Shown: positions 9,221 through 63,804 of the stretch, in pieces | Position numbering within the stretch: position 1 is the stretch's first letter | How the letters are laid out: every line of letters starts with the position of its first letter | Assembly (NCBI GenBank): GCA_964016885.1 | Contig: OZ024745.1 | Span: forward strand, 39,060,001 to 39,124,000 | Length of the DNA stretch: 64,000 nt | Source: Eledone cirrhosa | Lineage: Eukaryota | Direction: 5' to 3' | The notes under the pieces: generated by a model | What the model saw: the letters and a program-made list of their open reading frames with translations, nothing else | Databases searched by the model: none | Told to the model about the DNA's origin: nothing | Position numbers and translations under genes: made by a program

Positions 9221-9275
9221 ACTGCTATATATATTTCGGTGACAGCCATCATTAGCTGTGACCTCTTCAGGCTGT
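9221..9275 (-). ncRNA. Type I hammerhead ribozyme (same family as 39693); a degenerate + strand partner lies at 9419-9470
   Basis: ACAGC-CTGAAGA-GGTCACAGC..GCTGTCACC-GAAA-TATATA-TA-GCAGT, inside fold-back 9169-9525. Confidence 0.8.
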
Positions 9276-15500: not shown

Positions 15501-16355
15501 TTATACTTCTCTTAGGTCAGTGTTGTTTGTTTGGGTGTTCTTGTTGTTCCACTCATTCTTTCTGTTTAGCTTTGGTCTTCTAATTTCTATTTCACTGGCC
15601 TCTCTGATTTGCCTATCTGCTGGGTCATTCCTATGTTTAGATATTATTCTAATTTCTATGTTGTCTATGTTACCGTCATGTTGTTGTCTAGCATGTTCGT
15701 ATAGTACTGATCCGTTTTTTCGTCCTTTTAGTTCCCCCCAGTGTTGGTCTATCCTTTCACCTATGCTACGAGCTGTCTCACCTATGTATGTTGTTGTCAT
15801 GTTTCTGCAAGTACCCTCTGTACATTTTATGCTATAGACTACGTTTCTAGTTTTACAGTTTATCCGGGGGTTCACCTTACATATGATACATTTCCTATTG
15901 GTACAGTGGGTTTGCTTAAAAGGGTAGATTTTGCTGATCAGGGATTTTATGGTGGTTCCTGGCTTTTCTACCACCTTTATTTTTAAGTGGGTCTTTCTCA
16001 GGGCCTTTCTACACTGGTTAGCTAATTTCCCTCCAGGGGTGGCGTCCACAAACATGACACTCTGATATCTCTGGTTGTCGTACCATGATGTGGCCTTCCC
16101 TATCTTATGTCTAGCCCTATCTAAGCTATTCCATGATTTGCTCCTGTATAGTGGGCAAATTCCTTTCATGTCCAGTTCTATGAGGGTCTTATACTTTTCC
16201 ATGGCTCCTTCGTATACTCTGACTAAGTCTCTTTGGTTGTAGCCAGAGAACTGCATGCGGTTGATGAAGTGTTGGATGTGTCCTTCCATTTCTGTTGGGT
16301 CGCACATGCTGGACACATTCTTCATCACTCGTACCAAATCTGCGGAGCAAATCAT
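15501..16355 (-). CDS. PLE ORF C-terminal fragment: RT thumb/linker, Cys-rich motif and GIY-YIG endonuclease
   Basis: CTNRKCIIC..C, NVVYSIKC...TYIGETARSIGERIDQH, RQIREASEI...PKLN match the PLE GIY-YIG (Uri) domain. The RT core is absent. Confidence 0.9.
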   Translation of the reverse strand: MICSADLVRVMKNVSSMCDPTEMEGHIQHFINRMQFSGYNQRDLVRVYEGAMEKYKTLIELDMKGICPLYRSKSWNSLDRARHKIGKATSWYDNQRYQSVMFVDATPGGKLANQCRKALRKTHLKIKVVEKPGTTIKSLISKIYPFKQTHCTNRKCIICKVNPRINCKTRNVVYSIKCTEGTCRNMTTTYIGETARSIGERIDQHWGELKGRKNGSVLYEHARQQHDGNIDNIEIRIISKHRNDPADRQIREASEIEIRRPKLNRKNEWNNKNTQTNNTDLREV

Positions 16356-16987
16356 GGAATAGCTTAGATAGGGCTAGACATAAGATAGGGAAGGCCACAT
16401 CATGGTACGACAACCAGAGATATCAGAGTGTCATGTTTGTGGACGCCACCCCTGGAGGGAAATTAGCTAACCAGTGTAGAAAGGCCCTGAGAAAGACCCA
16501 CTTAAAAATAAAGGTAGTAGAAAAGCCAGGAACCACCATAAAATCCCTGATCAGCAAAACCTACCCTTTTAAGAAAACCCACTGTACCAATAGGAAATGT
16601 ATCATATGTAAGGTGAACCCCCGGATAAACTGTAAAACTAGAAACGTAGTCTATAGCATAAGATGTACAGAGGGTACTTGCAGAAACATGACAACAACAT
16701 ACATAGGTGAGACAGCTCGTAGCATAGGTGAAAGGATAGACCAACACTGGGGGGAACTAAAAGGACGAAAAAACTGGTCAGTACTATACGAACATGCTAG
16801 ACAACAACATGACGGTAACATAGACAACATAGAAATTAGAATAATATCTAAACATAGGAATGACCCAGCAGATAGGCAAATCAGAGAGGCCAGTGAAATA
16901 GAAATTAGAAGACCAAAGCTAAACAGAAAGAATGAGTGGAACAACAACAACACCCAAACAAACAACACTGACCTAAGAGAAGTATAA
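16344..16987 (+). CDS. Inverted duplicate of the PLE GIY-YIG ORF fragment
   Basis: ORF 16295-16987 matches 15501-16144 from RSKSWNSLDR onward, with only a few substitutions. Confidence 0.9.
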
Positions 16988-23937: not shown

Positions 23938-24818
23938 TTATTTATGTTCTGTAGTGTATTGTCTACTGTTTTTTTTTGTATTCTTTGTACTTAAGTTTTT
24001 AGTGTTTTCGTTTAACCTTCTAGTATTGATCTTTTTTATGTGTTGTTCAAGGTTTAACACTGTAGAGTATGACAGTCTTATAGTGGTAGGGTTTAGAATT
24101 GTGTGGTATTTGTGTGATGTAGGAAAATGTCTCTTAATTATTTTAAAGAAGAGTACTGGTAGAATTGTACTAATGGAAATATTGTATTCAGGGTTATACC
24201 ATAAGTACTCTTTGCATCGCTTTCTATTATTTTTATTTGTTGCTTTACTAGTGTGTATACTATGGTAGTAAGTGTGGTTTGGTGTTGTGTTATTATATCT
24301 ACCTATGTGGGATTTATTTTGGGTGTTTTGATTGTTCTCATCTATATACTCTATTTTGTTGAGGTAGCCTGCTTTACTAAGGGCGTTATCGTAGTACTCG
24401 GCATGTTCCTTAAATACTTGTATGTAAGAAGATAGACCCGAGATTCTAAGGGAAATATTTTTAGGGATAGATTTAATTATAGAGATGGGGTGGTTAGACC
24501 CAACATTTACGTACTTGAGATTTTCATTCAACTTATGAAACGGTTTAATCAGACCAGAGTTTAAATTGAGTGTGACATCCAGGAAGTTAACTACTTTAAG
24601 GTTGTATTCATATGTTATAGTTAGTCCTATTTCGAGTAGTAGTTTTCTTATATCTTTGCGTAGTTTTTCTAGTTTTTGGTTATTTATGTTTTTAACTAGG
24701 AGGAGAACATCGTCGCGGTATATTCCGCCGTGGAGATTGCTGAATGTTTCCTGGAGTCTAAAGGCGATAAATAACCACACAATATCAGTTATTTCCGCCG
24801 AAACATTAGAGCACATTG

Positions 24819-24820
<2 letters not shown>
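23938..24820 (-). pseudogene. PLE reverse transcriptase fragment
   Basis: YRDD catalytic motif, FLDV thumb motif and WYNPEY..LSYSTVLNL linker. The N-terminal part of the called ORF is (TA)n-derived. Confidence 0.88.
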
Positions 24821-24874
<54 letters not shown>

Positions 24875-25047
24875 GGATATGTGTTCCTACACGCAGAAGG
24901 CGCTAAGGGACACATGTATTGTCAAACCATATGCCAATGTGGTTCAATGGCAGGTTAATAAATTAACGACCCAGAACATATATAATGAAGGTTTAGCAAA
25001 TCAGTTTCAAAATGAATTTTAAAAAATTAACTGTACTTACTATGGTT

Positions 25048-30374: not shown

Positions 30375-32682
30375 TATAGGAATTGGTATTCGTCTTCGCA
30401 TTAATATTGCAAAACAGTATTATCAAAATTGTCCGGGTGATTGGTAGTTACCACAATGCTGGTTTGTATTTATTTTCTTGATTTATTCTTAAATTGAGTT
30501 TGGCAAATCCTATTGTCTATAGTTAGTATGCTCTTCACCTTAGCGAATCTGGTATCTTACGATTTGAACACATATATGTATATATCTGTGTTCGCTTTTC
30601 CTTTTTGTTCAGTTATATGTATATATTCATTGTTTTTATTAATATATATATATATATATATATATAAATTAATAAAAACAATGAATACAAACAAAGAACA
30701 AGTTCCTTATATAAAAAAATCATCATTTTACGATGGTTTCTAGGACTACACCCAAAAATACCAATCTAAAACTTAATTTCTCTACCTCTTCTCACATAAA
30801 ATATAATGACTTTCAAAAAAACATCCATCCTATTACTTCAATATATGTTAACAACATTACTAACACAATTCCTAATAATCAAACTAAAACACCTAAATCA
30901 GTTAATCTAACTAAACCTATATATAATAAATTCACTAATAGCATCTCTCTTAATAAACATGCTGATACATCGTATAAATGTAAAAATCAATATCGAAACC
31001 GTAATACACGGGTTACTTGGTATAATGCTCCATTTAATCAACAAATTAAAGATAATATCCCTAAACAATTGTTTACTATGCTAGAGAAAAACTTCCCGCC
31101 AAACCGTAAATACCATCAAATTTTAAATAGATCAACTGTCAAATGTTCGTACTGCACTACCAAAGATATACAATAAAATATAAGTGCGTACAGCGCATAT
31201 AAATGTAAAAAAAACTCTAATATACCACCAACACATCAAACCAACCATAATACTAAAATAAACCGCAACAAAACACCATCTCCTTCACATATAATAAGTC
31301 GAGTAAATTCCACACTAAATTTGACTAACTCCCTTGATATAATATTATAAACCTAATTAATATACACCGTACACTTATATTTTACATATTATTATAATTA
31401 GTTTTTTTAATTTAGTTAACCTATAATTAGTACTTTACTACAGATAACTTCTTAATTTTATTTCCCTTATTACAGCTCTCTTTTCCTAAAATTAATACCT
31501 AAAAGTATACATATAAATTAATTTAATTTCCTGTTATGAATCCAGATTACTAGTAGTTCATATAAGATTGGTATTTCTCACTACTACCCTTATCCCAACA
31601 TTTTATTTTCCTTCGTTTTTAACAACATTCTTTAATAACATGTAATTCTTATTTATCACATCCATATGAATTAATATAAATTTATCCCTATAAGTAAACC
31701 TATCAATTAATTTAATTTCTTGTTATAGATCTAGATTCCCTGTGGTTTAAAGAAGATTGGTAGTTCTCACTAATAACCTTACCCTAAAATTTTACTTTCC
31801 TTCGATTTTAACATTATTCTTTAATAACATCAAATTTTCGTGTACTGGCCTGAGCTGTTTTCATCCCCAAATATTATTTTCATTCAAAGTATTATTTCCA
31901 ATCAAAACATAAGTCTGCACTCCTCTACCCCTAAATTAAATTTCTACTACTATAATTCTATCAACTTTTTTTCAATCTAGCTAACTTAGTCATTTACAAT
32001 ACAAACATGGATATGTTGGTATTTGTGTTTATCAAATATATTGATTTATATTAACTTGTATTACACGACTCAGAAATACTTCTTTCTTTGAGCTATTTCA
32101 TTGTAAAGGACTACCTGAGATTTGAACTCATTATTAATAGTATCACTGCTCCTTACGTAGAGCTAAATTTAACCCCATATAAACGGCTGTTATTTCTAGC
32201 AGCACGAGTATGCGGTAGCTAGACACTGGATAATCATGTGTGAAAAACCATGTGCGTTAAACAGTCTTTTTAAATATTTTGAAGTGAAACATACCAATTT
32301 TTCTGGTGCTTGCTGAGGAGATAGAAATGCGGTATTCTTTCACTTTCATTTTTCGAAACTTATTTGGATTTTATCGTTTAAACCAATCTACGGAACAGGT
32401 TTGATTTTGAAATTTAAATTTGTCCAAGCACCACGGCTATTTGCCAATATACTTTGTTTTTATTGATTTATTATTTTAAATCGAGACAGGCAAACATTAT
32501 TATTATAATTAGTATTTTTCAATCTAGCTAACTTAGTCATTTACAATACAAACATGGATATGTTGGTATTTGTGTTTATCAAATATATTGATTTATATTA
32601 ACTTGTATTACACGGCTCAGAAATACTTCTTTCTTTGAGCTATTTCATTGTAAAGGACTACCTGAGATTTGAACTCATTATT

Positions 32683-32690
<8 letters not shown>
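30375..32690 (+). mobile_element. Internally deleted PLE derivative: pLTR fragment, linker ORF remnant and partially tandem pLTR
   Basis: ORF 30733-31176 has VTWYNAPFN..NFPPNRKYHQILNRSTVKCSY (PLE linker). A direct repeat at 31974/32521 gives a 547 bp period. A degenerate HHR core CTGAGGA..GAAA lies at ~32313-32358. Confidence 0.7.
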
Positions 32691-32736
<46 letters not shown>

Positions 32737-34076
32737 ATACGTACATACATATATGTATACAGACGTACAGTAGTATGTATATATATATACATACATGCGC
32801 ACATATATATATATGCACCTATGGATTTACCGAACATTTATTATAATGCTCGGTTTGTTTGTAAACAAACATCCTGAATTAAGCCGTACAGTGTTAGCAA
32901 CCATCGTTGCCCTTTTGTTAAACATCGACAAAGGAACGATGTACTAGCTTCAAACTTATTAGCTATCGTCAGCACCGCACACCTGCCTGCCAGATGATTG
33001 AACGTATGAACGAATATACTTTCCTTATGCATATTAACGGCTGATCAGCCTAATTTGTATGTCATGTGAGTTAATCGGATGGGCGCACCGAAAACGATAA
33101 ATGGAAACATTGAAACGAAATTTCATTTCTCACTGTTGGTACGGCTGTTACTTAAATATAAGTATGTATACGTACATACATATATGTATCCAGAGATACA
33201 GTAGTATGTATATATATACATACATGCATACATATATATATATGTACGTATGGATTTACCGAACATTTATTATAATACTCGGTTTGTTTGTAAACAAACA
33301 TCCTGAATTAAGCCGTACAATGTTTAACAACCATCGTTACCCTTTTGTTCAGCGCTGACAAAGGAACGATGTACTAGTTTCAAGCTTATTACCTATCGTC
33401 AGCACCGTATACCTTCCTGCCAGATGATTGAACGTCTGAAAGCATATACTTTCCTTAAGCATATTAACGGCTGAGCAGCCTAATTTGCATATATTAAATG
33501 TTCGGTAAATCCATAAGTACCTATATATATACATGTGTGCATGTATGTATATATATACATACTATTGTACGTCTGTATACATATATGTATGTACGTATAC
33601 ATACTTATATTTAAGTAACAGCCGTACTAAGAGTGAGAAATGAAATTTCGTTTAATTTTTTCCATTTATCGTTTTCGGTGCGCCCGGCCGATTAACTCAC
33701 TCGATATACAAATTAGGCTGCTCAGCCGTTAATATGCATAAGGAAAGTATATACTTTCAGACTTCAATCATCTGGCAGAAAGTTATACCGTGCTGACGAT
33801 AGCTAATAAGCTTGAAACAGTACACCGTTCCTTTGTCAGTGTTGAACAAAAGGGCAACGATGGTTGCTAAACACTTTACGGCTTAATTTTTATAAGAAAT
33901 GTTCGGTTTAATAAATGTTCGGTAAATCAATACTTACATATATACATGTGTGCCAGTATGTATATATATATACATACTACTGTATGTCTGTATACATATA
34001 TGTATGTACGTATACATATTTATATTTAAGTGACAGCCGTACTAAGAGTGAGAAATGAAATTTCCTTTCATTTTTT

Positions 34077-34080
<4 letters not shown>
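32737..34080. repeat. Tandem and inverted array of the ~430 bp HHR-bearing monomer
   Basis: HHR motif at 32937 and 33367 (430 bp apart); orientation flips at ~33495. Confidence 0.88.
33367..33407 (-). ncRNA. Minimal type I hammerhead ribozyme (same family); further copies at 32937 (-), 33788 (+), ~61990 (-) and ~62417 (-) are more degenerate
   Basis: CGGTG-CTGACGA-taggt aata agctt-GAAA-CTAG-TA-CATCG. Confidence 0.78.
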
Positions 34081-34133
<53 letters not shown>

Positions 34134-36244
34134 TATATTTCAAGACCGACGATAGGAAAAAGTACTCAATACTTAGTTTTGTTACTTTGAAGTTCCGCAT
34201 GGGTGTGCGTATGTGTATGTGTGTATGTGTGTGTGTGCGCGTGTGTGTGTATGCGTGTGTGTGTGTGTGTGTGCGTACGCGAGTGTGTGCGTGTATGTGT
34301 AGCACAACAAATTACAAAGTATTTACAAGTCGTAGATGATGGATATAATACTATGCTAAGTAGGTTAATGAGAGAGTTATTCGCTAATTATACTGAGATT
34401 TCCTATACGAATGTAAGTATGTTGGCATGTGCAATGGACAAACCAATGTTATTTTATGCACTAAAGATTTTTCCTTAAACGCCTTATATGTTATATGATA
34501 TTGAGTTTCGTTTCTCCACTGCATCAAATGAGAGGAAGTTATTTATGTTACTGATGCTAAACTGAAGCTTGAGGTGCTTCAAATACGGCTGGATAAACAA
34601 TCTAAAATGTCTGAGAGTAGCAGCTAACAGCAGAGTAGCAGCAAGCAACAGCATACCCAGCATCCACAGGAGAATAGTAGATGATATTTGTTAATTCTGA
34701 CAAAGCATTAGAAATCCACACATCCACAGCATTGGAGCAAACCAGATCCTACGAGAAGGAGGAACTAGAAATAGGGGGATCTATATGCTCACCAATAAAA
34801 TGGTGATTCCATCTTCCATGTAGCTCTTCTGATCCTTCAAATTCCGGAGATGTGGATGATATATTTTCTCGAAAAAATGGAAATACATTTGGGCCGAAAA
34901 GAAAAATATCGTGCAGTTTCCGGGAACGGTTCAAGGCCAATTACATTTTCACAATTCCTCTGTCCTCAGTAAGAATTATAAAGGCTGGAGAAGCTGAAGC
35001 AGGGGAAATTTCGTAGTATACTTGTTGTGTCTTACTTGCAGATAAATTAAATGATAGACTGGTGAAGAAAACTAACACAGATACTCCAAAAAAGCACATA
35101 TACGATATAGTCAGACACACTAATACAGTTACTTCTTAATTAGAAACCATAATTTACATCCTCCTTGTTGTTTGTAAACAGAAAAAAACAGTGTGTGCTT
35201 GCAGACATCTCAATCTCCAGTTATCCCATTTCTTCAACTGGTTTCGGTTTCTCACTTCTTTGAAAATGTATCTCATTGTTATTTCAAGAATTTTTTAACC
35301 TGTTCATTCAATCTTTTCCTCCGGGCTCAATGAATGAAAATGTGTCTCCTGGTGTGTTCTGTATTCTTCCTTTATGAAATCTTTTCTGTTATATTGTTTG
35401 AGATACTTATCTAAAATACAGCTAGATATTTAGACAGGTAGCACTTAATTATCAAATATATAATAGAGTGTTGAACTGTCAGTAATAACAAAAACACAAA
35501 TATTTAAATGACAGAGCCCATTCATTTGAATAAAATATTTGAGTTTATTATGAAATATATTTCTTGTAACATACAGATATACCACACACTGACGCACCTA
35601 TATATGCTTCTGCATAATTCAGTAATAACAGATTTCGAGAAACCAAGTAAATTGTATAAATAGAAGAGAAATATACAATAGATAACGGAAAAAAATGATA
35701 CTTCTAAGTATTTATTAGTTTTTATTACACATGATCAAAGAACATTTATCACGAGTAATAACCGTAAATGGAGCCAAACATTATTTCATTATTTTTAACG
35801 TACATTCGATTCTTTTTTCCACCTATTCCCATGGGTATAGTTCCAAGCTAGTGGAATCAAACCACTATAATTTATTTCATCAAGCCCAGAGGATTTCATC
35901 AACCCCAGAGTACATAATAGTAATTCGGATGGAACCATGATTACAAATCTAGTATATATATATACACACACTTATATATATATATATAATATAAGATCAA
36001 AAGATGGGTAAAGGAGTTCCATGTATTTTATTATGCGCATTTCAAAAACAAACATCATCATGCAATAATATTTGTGTTTTCATCAGATAAAACAGGAGAA
36101 CATGATATGAAGGCTAAAAAAAACACTTGTGGATAGTGCAGTTTTAAATCAACATTATATTATGTATACTCCAGTCCTACAAAATGTAGAGTGCTTCTTA
36201 TCCGATATCTGCATTGCTTTATTGTACTACAATAAAACTCACCT

Positions 36245-44959: not shown

Positions 44960-46377
44960 CGTCTGTCCGTGCTTGCATGCGGGTTTGGGACTTTGATATA
45001 CACCAAACATACATAATGTTCTTTAGCACTGAGGTAATTTTCGAATATTAAATATTTAGGTTTTTTATTGACGATAAAATACATAATAAAGCCTATTTAT
45101 ATTTGAATTAAATAAATCATTAATTATATAATATGATTACTTTATGTTTGAGGTGTCTAGTTATTCAATCATATTTTCAATTTATATTCTCAATAAAATT
45201 ATTTTCCTGAACATCTTTTAAAAATATTTCTTTCTCTCTGATGCAATAGCCATTTCAAATTTCAAATGACCTTTGCAATTCGTATTTGATTTGTATTTAC
45301 AAATAACATGATCGGTACACCTTTCTATACATTTCTGAGCATATATTGATGAGGTGTCTCTATAGAAAAGTGAATCTTCGGATTTGTTTGGCATAACGAT
45401 CGATAAGAGTCCTTTGTATGTGCCCTTTGTCAGATCTATTTCTTCACAGTGATTATCTTTTCAAGACATCGAGTTAGCTCTTAATATCTGTATGTGATTA
45501 ACGCCTACCAGTTATATTTTGATTGAGGCGTACAGGGCAGATTATTTGTGTCAGAAAGTCAATCATGATAGCAGACCTAAAATGACTGAGGTTAATTTCG
45601 TAATTACGTTGAAATAGATGTAGTTATAAGGATATTCTCTACCTTACAGCTGCTGATTTCATTAGATGTTATCTGTCTTTTATTGATTACAGGTTAATTA
45701 AATAAGGAATGTATCCTAATTGGAACTGTTACATTTGAAATAAAACGCAATATATACATAAGTAAATGACTTCGTTATAGTTTATATTTGTCAGAGAAGT
45801 TTGGGACTATTTTTCTAATTGAGTGAGTTTTGTTTTCACTATAGTGAACCAGAACTTCGGAATACTTAATAGATTGTCCTCACATGTGGATAGGTGATGA
45901 TCGAACAGGTATAATTTTATATGGATCATTCATTAAAGAAACGAATAGTACAATGCGTTAAAACATAACGGATGATTATTAAATTTTGCGGTACAATGAA
46001 ATTTGCTGTCTTCATACGAACGCAACCAACTTCATGTCAGAGATGCATCACAATTGTCTTCACAAATTAGATTTACGAGTGTATTATTATTCCTTGAGAC
46101 GAACAAAACTGCATATTCTAAGTGAAGGGTGAAGCAGGGTAAACATGCCAACTTGGGTTTTAACTTACTTGATAATATATCATAATAACGAATGAAGTGT
46201 GGTAAGGAGCCAGAGAGACCATAAGAAACCAGAGTACTCATTATTTAGGGTAGTAGACTGGGTAATAGGAAAATGTTTAACACCGACGGTAGATCTCAAG
46301 CCGTTTCGACGGCTATTTCTGGACTCAGAAAGAGCCGTTGAAACGGCTTGAGCTGTGCCATCGGGGTTAAAAATGTT

Positions 46378-46413
<36 letters not shown>

Positions 46414-46597: not shown

Positions 46598-47265
46598 ATA
46601 GCTGTTACTTAAATATAAGTATGTATACGTACATACATATATGTATACAGACGTACAGTAGTATGTATATATATATATATACATACATGCAAACATATAT
46701 ATATATGTACGTATCGATTTACCGAACATTTATTATAATGCTCCGAATTAAACCGTACAGTATTTAGCAACCATCGTTGCTCTTATGTTAAACATTGACA
46801 AAGGAACGATGTACTAGTTTCAAGCCTATTAGCTATCGTCAGCACCGTATACCATCCCACCAGATGATTGAACGTCTGAAAGTATATACTTCCTTATGCC
46901 TATTAACGGCTGATCAGCCTAATTTGCATATCGAGTGAGTTAATCGGCCGGGCGCACCGAAAACGATAAACGGAAAAAATGAAACGAAATTTCATTTCTC
47001 ACTCTTAGTACGGCTGTTACTTAAATATAAGTATGTATACGTACATACATATATGTATACAGATGTACAGTAGTATGTATATATATATATATACATACAT
47101 GCACACACATATTTATATATGTACGTATGGATTTACCGAACATTTATTATAATGCTCGGTATGTTTGTAAACAAACATCCCGAATTAAGCCGTACAGCAA
47201 GCATCGTTGCTCTTTTGTAACAGCCGTACTAAGAGTGAGAAATGAAATTTCGTTTGATTTTTTCC

Positions 47266-47270
<5 letters not shown>
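46598..47270. repeat. 1.5 tandem copies of the same monomer plus a short inverted end
   Basis: gctgttacttaaatataag at 46601 and 47013 (412 bp). Confidence 0.88.
46807..46847 (-). ncRNA. Minimal type I hammerhead ribozyme in the ~410-430 bp tandem repeat family
   Basis: CGGTG-CTGACGA-tAGCT aata GGCTt-GAAA-CTAG-TA-CATCG, with palindromic helix III ACTAGT. Confidence 0.82.
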
Positions 47271-47307
<37 letters not shown>

Positions 47308-50784: not shown

Positions 50785-53700
50785 AAGGTGTCAGGGAGGG
50801 GCATGTACCTATGTATGGGGGCTAGCCATGCCCTTTTCAAGTCAGCTCGTACTGTATTGGGTCCCACCTGAAACTCAGCTCTCACCTGTGACCCGATAAG
50901 TTGTAGCATGCGATAGCGGCAAATCTCCGTAAACCGCTTTGGCTGGTGGGCCGAACCAGGTTGTGGGTAGCCGGACGGGTCTGAAACCCTCCGATGAGTT
51001 AGATAGGGGATGCTTACCCCTGCATGCGAAGTCTGAACCCGGTGGAGTGAGTGGAGGAGGATAACATCGCCCCAAAGCTCACGAGGGCGGCGATAGCAGC
51101 GGTGTGGAGCGCTAGGGCACGGCAAGGCACTACAGACGTCGTGGCCATCCACTGCAGACAAGTAAGTCCCTGGTCGTGACGGTCCTCCATACCACCGGAT
51201 TCTGGCTTCTGCAGCCGAGTAAGTGGGACCGTCACTGTGCACTGGCTCTCCCACTATAAACCTTTCCCGCACAGGTTCTTCTTTAGCGTGCACTGCCAAA
51301 GCCGCGCGGCGATGGGCGAGAGGCGGAGGTAACAGGTGGAGGTATCCTTTGGGAGTTTCCAGTGTCAAACCCGCCTGTAGGTGGCCTGGATACGCAAGTC
51401 GTTCTCTTCCTGACCCTGGGATGACAGAGGAGTCAGGCCTTCCACCGGGCGACTGAGCAGCCCTTTTCTGGGGAGCACTACTCACCCACGCACGAGTGGA
51501 GGGGCGATACAAGGAGCCCTAATGCTCGCCCCACACAAAGCCGGCCAGTCTACCGCGGCTAGCGGTTTTATCCTTCCAACGGTCTAAACCAATATAATAT
51601 AAACAAGAACTTGATTCTTGGCGCATGGAATGTGCGCACCCTCATCGATAGGGAAACCTCCTTGAGGCCAGAGAAGAGAACTGCCCTCATAGCGAGGGAA
51701 TTAGCTCGCTACCAGATCGACATAGTCGCCCTCAGCGAGACCAGACTCGCCGAACAAGGATCAGTTGCACAACCGAAAGGTGGCTACACCTTCTGGAATG
51801 GTAATGCAGAGGACGAGGATAGAATCCATGGGGTAGCCCCGGCCATCAAGACTTCGCTCTGCACACATCTACCAGACCTCTCAGCACCTGTCAATGAGCG
51901 GCTGATGAGGCTCCGCTTCCCCCTCAAACCCATCTCGGCATGTCACATTCATCAGTGCGTACGCTCCCACTCTCACCTGCAGCGTAGAAGCATAGGGCGC
52001 TTCCTACGAGGAACTCAACGCACCCGTGAAAAACATCCCCCGACGCAACAAACTCATCCTACTGCTGGACTTCAACGCAAGAGTTGGCTCTGAAAGCAGC
52101 AACTGGAGAGGCCTGCTGGAACCTCACGGCACAGGGAATCTGAAATCTAACGGCCACATACTGTTGAGTTTCTGCGCCGAGAACGACCTCACCGTCACCA
52201 GCACACTGTCCCGCCTGGCAGACAAGTTCAGGACGACATGGATGCACCCCAGATACACACAGTGGCATCTGATTGACTTTGCCATATGCCGCAGGAGGGA
52301 CATCTGTGACGTCAGAATCACCAGGGCATGCGTGGTGCAGAGTGTTGGACCGACAATCGCCTTGTCAGGACCATCCTGTCACTGCACATCACCCCGATGC
52401 GCCGCACGACTCAATCAGCCAGAGCATCGTGATGCGTTCGTGGAAGACCTGGACGTCCGACTGAGTGCCCATAGACCACTGACCCAACTCAACAGTGGGA
52501 CCAACTAAGGGCGTTGGTGACAGAGTCAGCCAAGGCAACCATCGGACCGAGGAAGAGAGTCCAACAGGACTGGTTTGATGAAAACGATGAGCGTATCAGA
52601 CAACTCCTGGACAAGAAGAGGAGGGCTTTCATTGAGTGGCAGAATGACAGCTCCTCCACCTCGAAGTGTGACCGTTTCAAGCATGTCCAGGGGCAGACCC
52701 AAACAGAATGCAGGATGAGTGGTGGGAGAAGAAAGCCGAAGAAGTCGAGAAATACGATAACACAAATAACTCCAAGATGTTCTTCAGCGCCATCGGGTAC
52801 GTCTACTGAAAAGCCTGTCACCACACCGCTCCTGCCTGTTGACGGCTCGACCCTGCTGAAGGAGAAGAGCAACGTCAACTAGAGGTGGAGAGAGCACTTC
52901 AGCAACCTGGTCAACAGGCACTCCACTGTCAACCCTGCCACCCTCAGAAACCCGTAGACGGCAGTCTCGACCTCTCCCTCCCTCACACACACGTTGGATG
53001 AACTCACGAAAGCAATCAACCGGACCAGCTCAGGAAAAGCCCCTGGTAATGACGGATTCCGAGATCTTCAAGTCGGCCGCTCCAGCTGCTCTGGGGGCCT
53101 TCCACAACCTCCTCGCCAGGATATGGGAAGAAGAGGTGCCCAAAGACTTCAGGGATGCAACAGTTGTCTCGTCTTTTAAGAACAAAGGCCGCAAAACTGA
53201 CTCTGGCAACTATCGGGGCGTATATCTCCTGTCCATCGCTGAGAAGGTACTGGCTCGGGTCACGCTCAACCACTTCATCGCCAACATCTCGGATGACAAC
53301 CTACCTGAGACCCAGTATGGGTTTTGCCCAAACTGCAGCACGATCGCCATGATCTTTTCTGTACACCAAGTGCAGGAGAGGTGTGTCGAGAAGAACATGG
53401 ACCTCTTTGCCGTCTTCATAGACTTGAAGAAATCCTTCGACACTGTCAACAGGGAGGCCCTCTGTCGATTCCGTCGAAGTTTGGATGCCCGACCAAGTTC
53501 GTGAACCTGACACGGCAATTCCATGATGACATGACCGGGCAGGTACGCACGGGCGTCAAGCAAGGATGCGTGCTGGCTCCCGTCCTCTTCAACTTGTTCT
53601 CACCTGCGTGCTCACTCATGCCGTCAGAGACCTCGAGCACGGAGTGTATCTACGCTACAGACAGGACGGCTCCCTGTTTCACCTGAGGCGCTTGACGGCC

Positions 53701-54690
53701 AAGACAAGGACGAGCAGAGGATCCTCCTGGGGGCACTTTTTTGCTGTCATCGTCATCAAGTTCGCAGAGGCCTCCTGCCACTTCGCTCTAACTAGTAACG
53801 TTGGCAAGACTGAGGTCATGTTCCAGCCTGCACGTGCCTCCGTCGCCCACCCTCCTTCCATCTCCATCGGAGTCACCCAACTAAAGACGGTGGTCGACTT
53901 CAAGTAACACGGCACTGTCATCAGCAGCGATGGAAGCCTCGACAAGGAGATAAACGCCAGGATCTGCAAGGTCAGTCAAGCTCTCGGCCGCCTGAGGACA
54001 CGCGTCCTGAACAAGCACAACATCAGGCAGTCCTCCAAGTTCAAGGTGTACAGGGCCGTTGTTCTCACCAGCCCCCATGAGACATGGACTCTGTATAGAA
54101 GGCACCTTAAGCAGCTGGAACGGTTCCACATGTGCAGCCTGAGGTCAATCATGAACATCAAATGGCAGGACAAGGTCTCCAACCTCGAAGTTCTTGGCAT
54201 GGCTGAGACAACCAGTGTCGAAGCCATGATACTGAAGAGCCGACTTCGATGGGTGGGACATGTCATCCGGATGGTCGATCACAGGCTTCCGAAGCTACTG
54301 ATGTATAGGGAACTCTGTTCGAGGAAACGCAATCAGGGTAGGTCTCTCAAGAGGTTCAAAAACTATGTGAAATCCAGCATCAACAACACTGGAATCGCCC
54401 CAAAACAACTCGAGTTCCATGCTCAGGACAGGACTGTGTGGCGAGCCCTTACCATACGTACCAAAGTCTCTTTTGAAGAGAAGAAACGGGCAGAGGTCAC
54501 TGAGTGCCGTGAAAGGAGGAGAAAGGCATCAGCAGCTGCCCCAAGCGACTCCGGTCACTTCCCCTTCTTCCACTGTCCCCGGACCTGTAAGTGAAGCATC
54601 GGCCTCCACAGCCACCTTCGCGCCCACGGCAGAGGGGAACAACAATGAAGAAGATGTCATCATCGTTCACGATGGACAACCAAGACAGTA
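50785..54690 (+). mobile_element. Near full-length degenerate RTE-clade (BovB/RTE-like) LINE
   Basis: APE endonuclease (GAWNVRTL, IVALSETRL, LDFNARVG, WHLIDF), RT (KAPG.D, GNYRGVYLLS, FIDLKKSFDTV, GVKQGCVLAP), C-terminal RLRWVGHV and a decayed CCHH finger, with many frameshifts. Markedly GC-rich relative to the flanks. Confidence 0.95.
51611..54630 (+). pseudogene. RTE EN-RT ORF, frameshifted
   Basis: Split across ORFs 51611, 52026, 52514, 52998, 53324, 53566 and 54046. The FADD catalytic region is damaged near 53740. Confidence 0.92.
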
Positions 54691-60568: not shown

Positions 60569-61724
60569 GATATGCACTTGGCCTAGTTTCAATCCGCAGT
60601 CACTGTGAATTCATATTATTCGCCAGAGTAATTGGGTTGTGTTAGACTTCAATGTTACACATTATTAAACACGTAAAATGCTTTAAAATAATTGAAAAGT
60701 AGGGGAAAAGGGAAAACTGTAAAGCGTTAATAGCTGTTAGATATGGTCTTTTGAATTATAAATAGATTAACTTATATTGTCTCATAGAAAGAAGAAAATA
60801 TGATACACTAGCATCATTTCTATCATTATGTAGACATGGATAGGATTTTGTTTCCCTCTAGTTTTAAAATGAAAATATGTATATATTACAGTTACTGAGA
60901 AATGTATTTGAAACGAAAATTAAGACAGAATCAAAAAAAAAAAACACTACGAAACAAAGACATTAATCATTCTTTCATTAAAGAAAACATATATATCTGT
61001 AAAAAGTAAAATTTGACATCCCTTAAAGCTAATATATTTCTTTTAAAAAGAAAAGTAATGTTATATAATTGCAGCTTTTCTCTGAGTATTGATGATTTCA
61101 AAAGCTAAAGGAAGAAATTTAAATCGATTTCTGAACTCTAATGAATATGTTTGCTAATAGCAATAAGATACGGAAAATAAGTAAATAAATGGTTTTAAAA
61201 TCTAAACTAAGAGACAAATTGAAGTGCACATTAAAACAAAAATATCTCGATATATTATGGAAAAGGAGTGTTAGTCTCATCTTATTTGAATCGAAGTAAA
61301 CATTTGTAGATTTGCATGTGTGTGTGTGCTAAGGTTTTACAATATATATGTACGTCGCAATGTAAGTATACCTTGGAAAAACACAAACCGAGACACACAA
61401 ACATACACTCACACGCGCACACAATTATATATATATACAGATATATATATATATATATATATGTGTATGTGTGTGTGTGCGTGCGCGTGTATGAGTGTGT
61501 GTGTTTATGTGTATGTGGGTGTGTGTGTGCGAGAGTCTGAATAGTTTAATATATATATTTTTTCATACAATGATGTAGGCTAATATGCACAAGGCAAATG
61601 TTGTGGACAGATGTAGATAATACTAAAAAGCTATACACACACATTCATACACACACACACACACATATATACATATATGAGGGTGAGTGTGTGTGTGTCT
61701 GTGCGTATATATATATATATATAT

Positions 61725-62600
61725 AAACGGAAAAAATGAAATTTCATTTCCCACTCTTAGTACGGCTGTTACTCAAATATAAGTATCTATACGTACATAC
61801 GTATATGTATACAGACGTACAGTCCTATGTATATATATATACATACATGCACATATATATATATATATGTACGTATGGATTCACCGAACATTTATTATAA
61901 TACTCGGTGTGTTTGTAAACAAACGTCCCGTAATAAGCCGAAGTGTCTAGCAACTATCATTGCTCGTTTGTTCAATACTGACAAAGGTACGCTGTACTAG
62001 GTTCCAGCTTATTAGCTATCGTCAACAACGTATACCTTCTTGCCAGATGATTGAACGTCCGAAACTATATACTTTCCTTATGTATATTAACGGCTGAGCA
62101 GACTAATTTGCATATCGAGTTGGTTAGTCGGCCGGGTGCACCGAAAACGATAAACGAAAAAATGAAACGAAATTTCATTTCCCACTCTTAGTACGGCTGT
62201 TACTTAAATATAAGTATGTGTACGTACATACATATATGTATACAGACGTACAGTAGTATGTATATATATATACATACATGCACACATATATATATGTACG
62301 TATGGATTGACCGAACATTTATTATAATGCTCGGTGTGTTTGCAAACAAACATCCCGTATTAAGCCGTAGTGTCTAGCAACCATCATTGCTCGTTTGTTC
62401 AACACTGACAAAGGAATGCTGTACTAGTTGCAAGCTTATTAGCTATCGTCAGCAACATATACATTCCTGCCAGATGATTGAACGTTGTTTACAAACACAC
62501 CGAGCATTATAATAAATGTTCGTTGAATACATATGTACATATATACATGTGTGCATGTATATATATATATACATACTACTGTACGTCTGTATACATATAT
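61725..62600. repeat. About two tandem copies of the same monomer plus an inverted end
   Basis: tttcatttcccactcttag at 61742 and 62173 (431 bp). Confidence 0.88.
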
Positions 62601-62746
62601 GGTAAGAACCCCACGGCTTGAGCTCAGCCGTCGGGGTCCTACCCGTCCCTATTACCCACTCTACCACCCTAACTATTGAGTACTTTGGTGTGTTATGGTC
62701 CATCTGGTTCCTTACCACATTTCCTTCGTTATATATATATATATAT

Positions 62747-62934: not shown

Positions 62935-63804
62935 CTATTCTCACCTGAGTCTCCAGGCAATGCGCGGACACTGGCGGCTCATATAAAAATAATAATAATT
63001 CGGTAGAAAGAACAGCTGGCGAGGACTGAATTCCATGTACTGAAATTCTCACTGCTTCTAGTCAAATGGCCGATTCTAAAGAATCAATCACGTGACACAG
63101 AGGCTAGTTAGAAGTAATGGGATGGTAAGATGACTGACGCCTCCTAAGACCCCAAAAAAATTTAGAAGTGGTTTTGGCAGGTTTGCTCGACAAATCAGTG
63201 ATTTGGAGATAAATATAGATAATTTAATATATCAACTAACATAGGCGCACAGATGCACGTCCATGCCAGCAAATACACAGGTTATGTCATAATACCTAGG
63301 TGGTTCAATGCATAAGGGTGCAGAACAATAATATAAAAGACGTAAGATAAGAAAAAATTTAAAAAAGATTTTTTAAAAAAGATTTTCTTATCTTACGTCT
63401 TTTATATTGTTGTTCTGCACCCTCCTGCATTGAACCACCTAGGTATTATGACATAACCTGTGTATTTGCTGGCATGGACGTGCATCTGTGCGCCTATGTT
63501 AGTTGATATATTAAATTATCTATATTTATCTCCAAATCACTGATTTGTCGAGCAAACCTGCCAAAACCACTTCTAAATTTTTTTTGGGGTGTTAGTAGGC
63601 GTCAGTCATCTTACCATCCCATTCCTTCTAACTAGCCTCTGTGTCACGTGATTGATTCTTTAGAATCGGCCATTTGACTAGAAGCAGTGAGAATTTCAGT
63701 ACATGGAATCCAGTCCTCGCCAGCTGTTCTTTCTACCGAATTATTATTATTTTTATATGAGCCGCCAGTGTCCGCGCATTGCCTGGAGACTCAGCTGAGA
63801 ATAG

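Follow-up and report, generated by a model that had tools for sequence, protein, structure and literature searches.

Hammerhead-bearing tandem repeats in Eledone cirrhosa as a probable non-autonomous retrozyme family, likely to be copied by a Penelope-like protein from RNA circles

What kind of element leaves tandem copies of a unit of about 430 nt in two opposed arms, and from what template are such copies made? Three insertions of this kind lie in the window, the 64,000-nt stretch of DNA analysed here (G000:C5:39060001-39124000), and we followed them through the 3.0-Gb assembly of 1,796 contigs to which it belongs. The original prediction had read them as retrozymes, reverse-transcribed from a circular RNA by the enzyme of a Penelope-like element (PLE) with a variable starting phase and a final template switch that inverted one segment. 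On our analysis the likely reading is a non-autonomous retrozyme whose copying is carried out in trans by an RT/GIY-YIG protein of Penelope type, the most probable template being a circle of monomeric RNA. It also replaces the proposed account of the inversion with a different one.

The three dispersed insertions of one ~430-nt unit, with two opposed arms each, were found where they had been predicted (32734-34084, 46601-47271 and 61723-62601; Table 1). They are not chance resemblances: a 37-nt core of the unit has 1,169 exact matches in the genome, against none for the reversed control. Phase numbers refer to a 428-nt majority unit, derived from 51 cut-to-cut units, and start at the base that follows the predicted hammerhead cut. 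At all three loci the ribozyme-sense 3' ends of the opposed arms face outward; one arm ends at phase 273 on a (TA)n run and the other at 205, 226 or 191, near the second site, 214, that is seen genome-wide. The variable starting phase of the original prediction was therefore not borne out for the ribozyme-sense 3' ends, the variable ends being the 5' ends at the internal inversion junction. Likewise, the "terminal inverted segment" described at loci 1 and 2 is the tail-bearing arm itself and not an appended end. All six hammerheads in the window closely resemble the motif that had been quoted for each monomer, but none matches it exactly, the motif being a consensus; two of the six retain an intact core (33366-33412 and 46806-46852). 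Given that the passes through the unit differ by 7.5-12% within each of loci 1 and 3, the three window copies are old, and they are mostly decayed.

Table 1. Positions, strands and properties of the retrozyme features in the window
Feature	Position	Strand	Remarks
Locus 1, short-site arm	32734..33492	-	1.76 units; ribozyme-sense 3' end at 32734, phase ~205; 5' end at phase 308
Locus 1, tail-bearing arm	33490..34084	+	1.41 units; phase 98 to 273; final few bases blend into (TA)n
(TA)n target, left of locus 1	32687..32724	.	
(TA)n target, right of locus 1	34079..34130	.	
Type I hammerhead copy, locus 1	32936..32981	-	decayed; A15.1 changed; stem II mismatch
Type I hammerhead copy, locus 1	33366..33412	-	intact core; one stem II mismatch
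Type I hammerhead copy, locus 1	33783..33828	+	decayed; stem I mismatch; stem III short by one base
Predicted initiation platform, read-through form	33625..33712	+	7-bp stem around the phase-273 site, two inner hairpins; from fold, compensatory pair 240/301 and conservation in family B
Locus 2, long arm	46601..47218	-	1.47 units; 3' end at phase 226, without (TA)n, probably eroded; 5' end at phase 24
Locus 2, tail-only arm	47217..47271	+	55 nt, 0.13 unit; phases 219-273
Type I hammerhead copy, locus 2	46806..46852	-	core and stems intact; best preserved within the window
(TA)n target, right of locus 2	47269..47307	.	
Locus 3, tail-bearing arm	61723..62485	-	1.79 units; 3' end at phase 273 on a TA run at ~61706-61724; 5' end at phase 365
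Locus 3, short arm	62485..62601	+	117 nt, 0.27 unit; phases 75-191; another repeat adjoins
Type I hammerhead copy, locus 3	61989..62033	-	broken core
Type I hammerhead copy, locus 3	62416..62462	-	broken core, A13 changed

Other elements share the window with these insertions. Further type I hammerhead-like motifs of at least three other families lie at 9270 (-), 9424 (+), 22030 (-), 39742 (-), 14375 (-) and 20029 (-); those at 9270 and 9424 form an inverted pair, and several more families occur in the loci fetched from the genome. An inverted pair of PLE 3' fragments at 15501-16987, with relatives in many loci, has a Cys-rich linker and a GIY-YIG-like motif, for which Pfam gave no match, and decayed fragments of another PLE type occupy 23938-24921 (-) and 30715-31176 (+). 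At 51563-54594 (+) lies a frameshifted non-LTR retrotransposon with an RVT_1 match and, as read by eye, endonuclease-like frames upstream. A short palindromic repeat found beside (TA)n and retrozyme (46270-46380, 62602-62730 and 34131-34180; also L002, L028 and L133) may be another TA-targeting element, and 63277-63461 is a long, perfect-looking, MITE-like inverted repeat.

Genome-wide, the unit of the window loci belongs to what we call family A. With a GC content of 36% and a longest ATG reading frame of 58 codons the unit is non-coding; it holds no reading frame for RT or GIY-YIG and is thus not an autonomous PLE. Family A arms range from less than one to more than 12 units. Consecutive exact cores about 440 nt apart, as expected of a non-LTR retrozyme, occur in the family, and no window locus shows them. 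A non-coding, tandem unit of ~428 nt with a single type I hammerhead upholds the retrozyme identity first proposed, and the testable criteria of non-LTR retrozymes given in the available parts of PMC7229834 and 10.64898/2026.07.22.740005 describe family A. The arm maps of family A loci contain no LTR-like layout, and both insertion flanks are mostly (TA)n, where any target-site duplication is unreadable. A degenerate motif common to family A and a sister family, B, has 23,351 matches in the genome, and the 13 non-redundant loci mapped from the first 30 of these were all family A-like or B-like repeats. The unit is also present in four sequencing runs of unrecorded kind, read as contigs, which speak to presence only. 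A longer variant of the family has units of ~484-502 nt with an expanded TA-rich tract (L316-L322, L288 and L298). Two further ideas were dropped: a Pol III origin, suggested by a T-run near phase 260-265, was rejected by reasoning alone, read-through past the T-run being common, and long arrays were rejected as proof of many turns of reverse transcription because arrays L096 and L206 have higher-order periods, of five and two units respectively, from recent duplication at the DNA level.

The predicted ribozyme belongs to hammerhead type I: stem I has 6 bp, stem II has 4 bp and a U-U pair at its base, stem III is a 2-bp palindrome, and the cut triplet is GUA. At loci not chosen by exact core match, 120 of 152 passes have an intact core, and minor alleles stay below 10% at all 31 sites of the core, stem II and stem III. 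In stem I the wobble pair across the cut is swapped, being U-G in 55 and G-U in 33 of 99 loci. Covariation in 53 aligned copies lay above all 500 shuffles and all slid controls, a value inflated by kinship among the sequences (50 family A copies chosen by core likeness and three family B rows) and, for stem II, contributed mostly by the family B rows. Free minimum-energy folds, with z-scores of only -2.0 to +0.1, formed stems I and II in some copies and stem III in none, which fits the dimeric hammerheads described in the available text of PMC4209133. Rfam gave no hammerhead among all 63 matches for 32800-33900 or among the 150 of 307 matches listed for the whole window, and its microRNA matches were TA-repeat artefacts below gathering scores. 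Judged from sequence, the unit is predicted to carry one self-cutting hammerhead RNA.

The outer ends of the arms tie this unit to PLEs. The survey took in 104 loci, retrieved either with a DNA query from mid-unit or with the core. Among 193 arm ends, 83 lay at phases 258-275, 81 at 195-221 and 29 elsewhere, so that 164 fell within two windows making up 10.5% of the unit, at sites 273 and 214, which are 59 nt apart. A TA run followed 75 of the 83 ends in the first window and 63 of the 81 in the second, or 138 of the 164 two-site ends, versus 9 of the 29 others. Exact junctions with (TA)n number 3,027 genome-wide at phase 273 and 3,729 at phase 214; exact read-through at phase 273 occurs 3,062 times. 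The start sites match (TA)n over 3-5 nt. A 7-bp stem closes round the 273 site, with a compensatory pair that is A-U in 116 and G-C in 29 of 152 loci, and the stem is retained in family B; the 3' strand of this stem falls outside the inserted sequence, so that the RNA is probably primed internally. Ribozyme-sense 3' ends at two fixed sites, together with variable head-to-head 5' ends, are the two-site "tail" scar of PLEs. This scar, the inverted neighbours and the (TA)n targets support the predicted PLE-type mobilisation. The phase map that had been proposed as a check gave a divided answer: 3' phases are fixed at 214 and 273, while 5' phases do vary and greater-than-unit lengths were found.

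To describe arm lengths we used 93 anchors at the tail, less two duplicates and one unmapped arm (n = 90). The cut site was crossed by 56 of these 90 arms, and copies longer than one unit, as predicted, were plentiful: 31 exceeded one unit by more than 40 nt and six exceeded two units. The passes and both arms of one insertion share one template haplotype. Divergence in family A is 4.3% within an arm, 4.3% from arm to arm and 8.6% between loci, and the two arms agree at 317 of 343 subfamily sites (control 53%), as scored per site after a first subfamily classifier proved uninformative; 6 of 45 well-covered arm pairs differ at two subfamily sites. Rare variants were common to both arms in 5 of 64 cases and to successive passes in 7 of 94, against 0.33% in the control. 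In 5 of 63 insertions, variants unique in the sample (six in all) occurred in every pass, next to two partly shared and 145 single-pass variants. This haplotype evidence is thin in family A and strong in family B.

Family B (L036, L071, L168, L302-L305 and L323-L421) has a 466-nt unit that is younger and homologous to that of family A from end to end, with fully different stem I and stem II sequences. From 90 anchors, 88 arms were mapped; 62 had an inverted neighbour, and 48 of these 62 partners end at the short site. Divergence is 1.1% within and 0.8% between arms, as against 6.5% between loci, and rare variants were shared in 26 of 72 arm-to-arm and 66 of 162 pass-to-pass comparisons (control 0.6%). 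The haplotype test covered 57 insertions, two long arrays and 29 insertions with little overlap having been set aside. Twelve of the 57 showed zero internal difference, and 12 of the 57 carried sample-unique variants in every pass (17 variants), beside five partly shared and 134 single-pass variants. Single-pass variants rise with age (rho 0.83) and all-pass variants do not (rho -0.08). Since a new mutation arises in one unit, a variant in every pass implies that the daughter was copied repeatedly from one monomer, and a circle is the simplest way to do so. Shared variants could alternatively come from gene conversion, assembly polishing, re-priming on a single linear RNA or a large number of recently homogenised arrays. 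The circular template of the original prediction is thus favoured by one haplotype per insertion, but not by variable phase, since the priming phases are fixed. We regard an RNA circle as the probable template.

Greater-than-unit length alone is no proof of a circle, because an uncleaved linear multimer also fits, as the available text of PMC11167929 indicates. The same two-site PLE insertion could then start from multimers transcribed from a few long homogenised arrays, with the hammerhead serving RNA turnover or expression. Such arrays exist, with at least 19 kb of tandem units in family A (L204+L205, G000:C1:51.77-51.79 Mb) and ~30 units in one family B array, and multimers predict the same fixed ends, long arms and absence of stops at the cut site; a few variants are, moreover, common to only some passes, and PAc uses unprocessed RNA in vitro (PMC11167929, in part). 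Few source arrays are nevertheless hard to square with family B, in which 40 of 53 templates are distinct and passes lie ~1% apart versus 6.5% between loci. Among insertions free of internal differences, L389 has sample-unique variants in three or four passes, and L394 nearly so. Rare variants show no register effect in family A (161 vs 153, p 0.69) or family B (71 vs 59), and units in the sampled family A arrays are 3-13% apart, recent duplications and L113 excepted. Copying from linear multimers therefore appears unlikely.

One haplotype per insertion would be expected equally if the template were one linear monomer, terminally redundant or self-cleaved, on which the RT re-primes or jumps back. 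Family A has an excess of tail-anchored arms near one unit in length (18 vs 3 and 3; post hoc scan p 0.004), which fits a template end near phase 250-300, but the pile-up was not replicated in family B tail arms (9 vs 12 and 9). It was also set aside as evidence for a circle, being absent in family B and expected from a structural block as well. Stops do not pile up at the cut site in the 90 family A tail-anchored arms (4 vs 4 and 5) or in family B (3 vs 4 and 2), a pattern that speaks against cleaved linear monomers being the principal template. The seamless read-through at phase 273 counts against a linear monomer too, and the jumps required would have to be repeated and base-precise. We hold this variant to be quite improbable. 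Arm lengths cluster elsewhere as well: 9 of 42 family A short-site arms stop just past the cut site, at 224-263 nt, and 17 of 48 family B short-site arms measure 367-477 nt, five of them equalling one unit plus 3-11 nt.

The genome contains PLEs of its own. PLE-A is young, with a 775-codon open frame, a C-terminal GIY-YIG domain and many near-identical copies, and forms seamless 4,211-bp tandems with one hammerhead per unit (L237+L238, G000:C4:322.58-322.60 Mb; L239-L241). On (TA)n it shows the same layout of a short and a long end as the retrozyme arms. Four PLE-A insertions were chosen for their tandem or inverted arrangement; the copies inside each differ by 0-0.05%, and three of the four have all-copy variants absent from the other three insertions, so that PLE-A shows, in few cases, the same one-haplotype signature as the retrozymes. 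A second long reading frame starts right after the PLE-A tail. The other family searched is one that we take, from its RT motifs, to be Poseidon-like; further PLE families were encountered as fragments, for some of which the label "Naiad-like" was rejected because a C-terminal GIY-YIG is present.

Could the unit be the pseudo-LTR (pLTR) of a coding PLE outside our sample, and the loci its 5'-truncated partial tandems? Xenopus retrozymes resemble PLE pLTRs according to the available part of 10.64898/2026.07.22.740005, and the genome-wide search covered two PLE families only; the unit has no significant similarity to the terminal repeats of either. What lies upstream of each unit, seamlessly and for up to many turns, is another unit, and at the fetched loci no coding PLE body is attached in register there. 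When 107 free 5' ends were compared with 61 PLE reading frames from the fetched loci, three joined a PLE frame directly, one in the same sense (L065) and two inverted (L103 and L177), at unrelated phases and in two PLE types. The family motif occurs in 3 of 65 PLE-anchored loci, each time as a separate insertion beyond (TA)n. The unit as pseudo-LTR is thus very improbable, the same-sense join at L065 notwithstanding, and family A passes both of the refutations that had been named for it: copies exceed one unit and are not always joined to a coding PLE body. As evidence for a particular partner the three junctions are too few and of mixed PLE type, and L077 and L158 are plain neighbours with (TA)n between. 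The chimera at L065:1909-3300 consists of an inverted PLE 3' end and a PLE frame fragment joined by microhomology to a retrozyme arm, possibly one event using two RNAs.

It remains to explain the inversion. Among 62 head-to-head pairs, 37 had one end at each site, three were 273/273, two were 214/214 and 20 involved another phase; one of each site was thus found in 37 of the 42 pairs with both ends at sites. An inverted neighbour was mapped for 48 of the 90 tail-anchored arms, and 42 of these neighbours end at 200-221. Conversely, at 30 loci anchored at 214 the partners mostly end near 273, as read by eye. Opposed arms overlap by 1-5 nt at 24 of 48 junctions, and in 33 of 67 two-arm insertions neither arm lies inside the other. 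A single RT that starts at variable phase on a circle and then switches template, as originally predicted, would account for variable junction phases and for one haplotype in both arms, but it is hardly credible where both outer ends sit at two initiation sites on (TA)n, one of each as a rule, and about half the arm pairs are not nested. Two separately primed cDNAs explain the inversion better.

We accordingly set out the proposed pathway, from a PLE protein acting on a retrozyme circle, in conditional terms. A tandem copy would be transcribed, and two hammerheads would excise one monomer, probably as a dimeric ribozyme, which we propose because stem III is a 2-bp palindrome; the monomer would then be ligated. 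A PLE protein would cut both (TA)n strands and prime at phases 214 and 273, one per DNA end, a step for which the end pattern is observed and the enzymology is borrowed from PAc. Each cDNA would run a variable distance through the ribozyme site, for up to several turns, as the measured lengths suggest. The two cDNA ends would anneal by microhomology, consistent with the short overlaps, and give the head-to-head inversion. Separate priming and joining are suggested by the available text of PMC11167929 and PMC8557442 and by the ends of PLE-A.

That family A is a PLE-mobilised retrozyme seems to us very likely. We lean slightly towards a wider proposal, in which PLE RTs copy RNA circles in vivo: the two ends of cut (TA)n would each prime the same circle, at one of two fixed internal positions, and copying would roll round it, in the 428- and 466-nt retrozymes and in the 4.2-kb PLE-A alike. 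If true, partial tandems and "pseudo-LTRs" would have arisen as traces of such rolling. The circle idea itself is not new, having been put forward for PLEs and retrozymes in the available parts of PMC4209133 and PMC7229834. A survey by titles and the openings of abstracts, which took in few subscription journals or repeat databases, gave no paper on two-site tails or haplotype bottlenecks in retrozymes. What the genome adds is an insertion anatomy that, thousands of times over, ties a retrozyme to PLE enzymology. One haplotype per insertion amounts to a genome-only test of the circle that extends to the young, intact PLE-A, and the genome offers a system in which to test rolling-circle target-primed reverse transcription, with start sites predicted to the base.

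Several known systems bear comparison. In L1 twin priming, two target ends prime separately and joining by microhomology yields an inversion; in family A, unlike L1, the position of the second site does not vary, and the arms, instead of abutting, usually cover much of the same template. PAc and other PLEs are close in mechanism. According to the available parts of PMC11167929, a Poseidon protein acts on AT-rich DNA, where it cuts and extends the two strands, and it starts at two internal sites on the RNA; the genomic tail of PAc is the sequence between them. In this one PLE that has been reconstituted in vitro, hammerhead cleavage was dispensable and most of the substrate was unprocessed RNA. 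PMC8557442, in its available parts, describes tandem copies that are partial, a neighbouring 5'-truncated copy in inverted orientation, and a tail that is often confined to one end. Family A shares with these systems the two internal starts bounding a one-end tail, the AT-rich target, the hammerhead in the repeat, and the 5'-truncated partial tandems with an inverted 5'-truncated neighbour. It differs, as far as those texts go, in encoding no RT or endonuclease, in a tail of 59 nt versus 30-40, and in starts that match (TA)n over 3-5 nt, whereas PAc starts at a non-homologous site. Its haplotypes also point to a monomer bottleneck, in contrast to the unprocessed RNA used by PAc in vitro. Chlamys MRC1 is alike, in the available text of PMC8557442, in comprising non-autonomous PLE dependants with pLTRs and multicopy head-to-tail insertions; Chlamys elements, however, usually look like an autonomous family in their 3' part, and their clades are described there as having no canonical hammerheads, whereas family A has a predicted hammerhead and no match in the families searched.

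Mobilisation by PLEs and a circular template are proposals in the available parts of the retrozyme literature (PMC7229834, PMC4209133 and 10.64898/2026.07.22.740005). With the metazoan non-LTR retrozymes described there (PMC7229834; 10.64898/2026.07.22.740005) family A has in common a low-GC, non-coding tandem unit of a few hundred nt with one type I hammerhead, thousands of dispersed copies beside arrays, and co-existing PLEs; the U-U pair at the base of helix II recurs in axolotl HHR_Amex2. Retrozyme RNAs are given as 170-400 nt, whereas the DNA unit here is 428 nt and its relatives 442-500. Family A is a further non-LTR retrozyme, with genomic evidence useful on an open mechanism. Set beside those retrozyme descriptions, as far as their available text extends, its new features are two fixed start sites, inverted arms of which one has a tail and the other none, and targeting to (TA)n.
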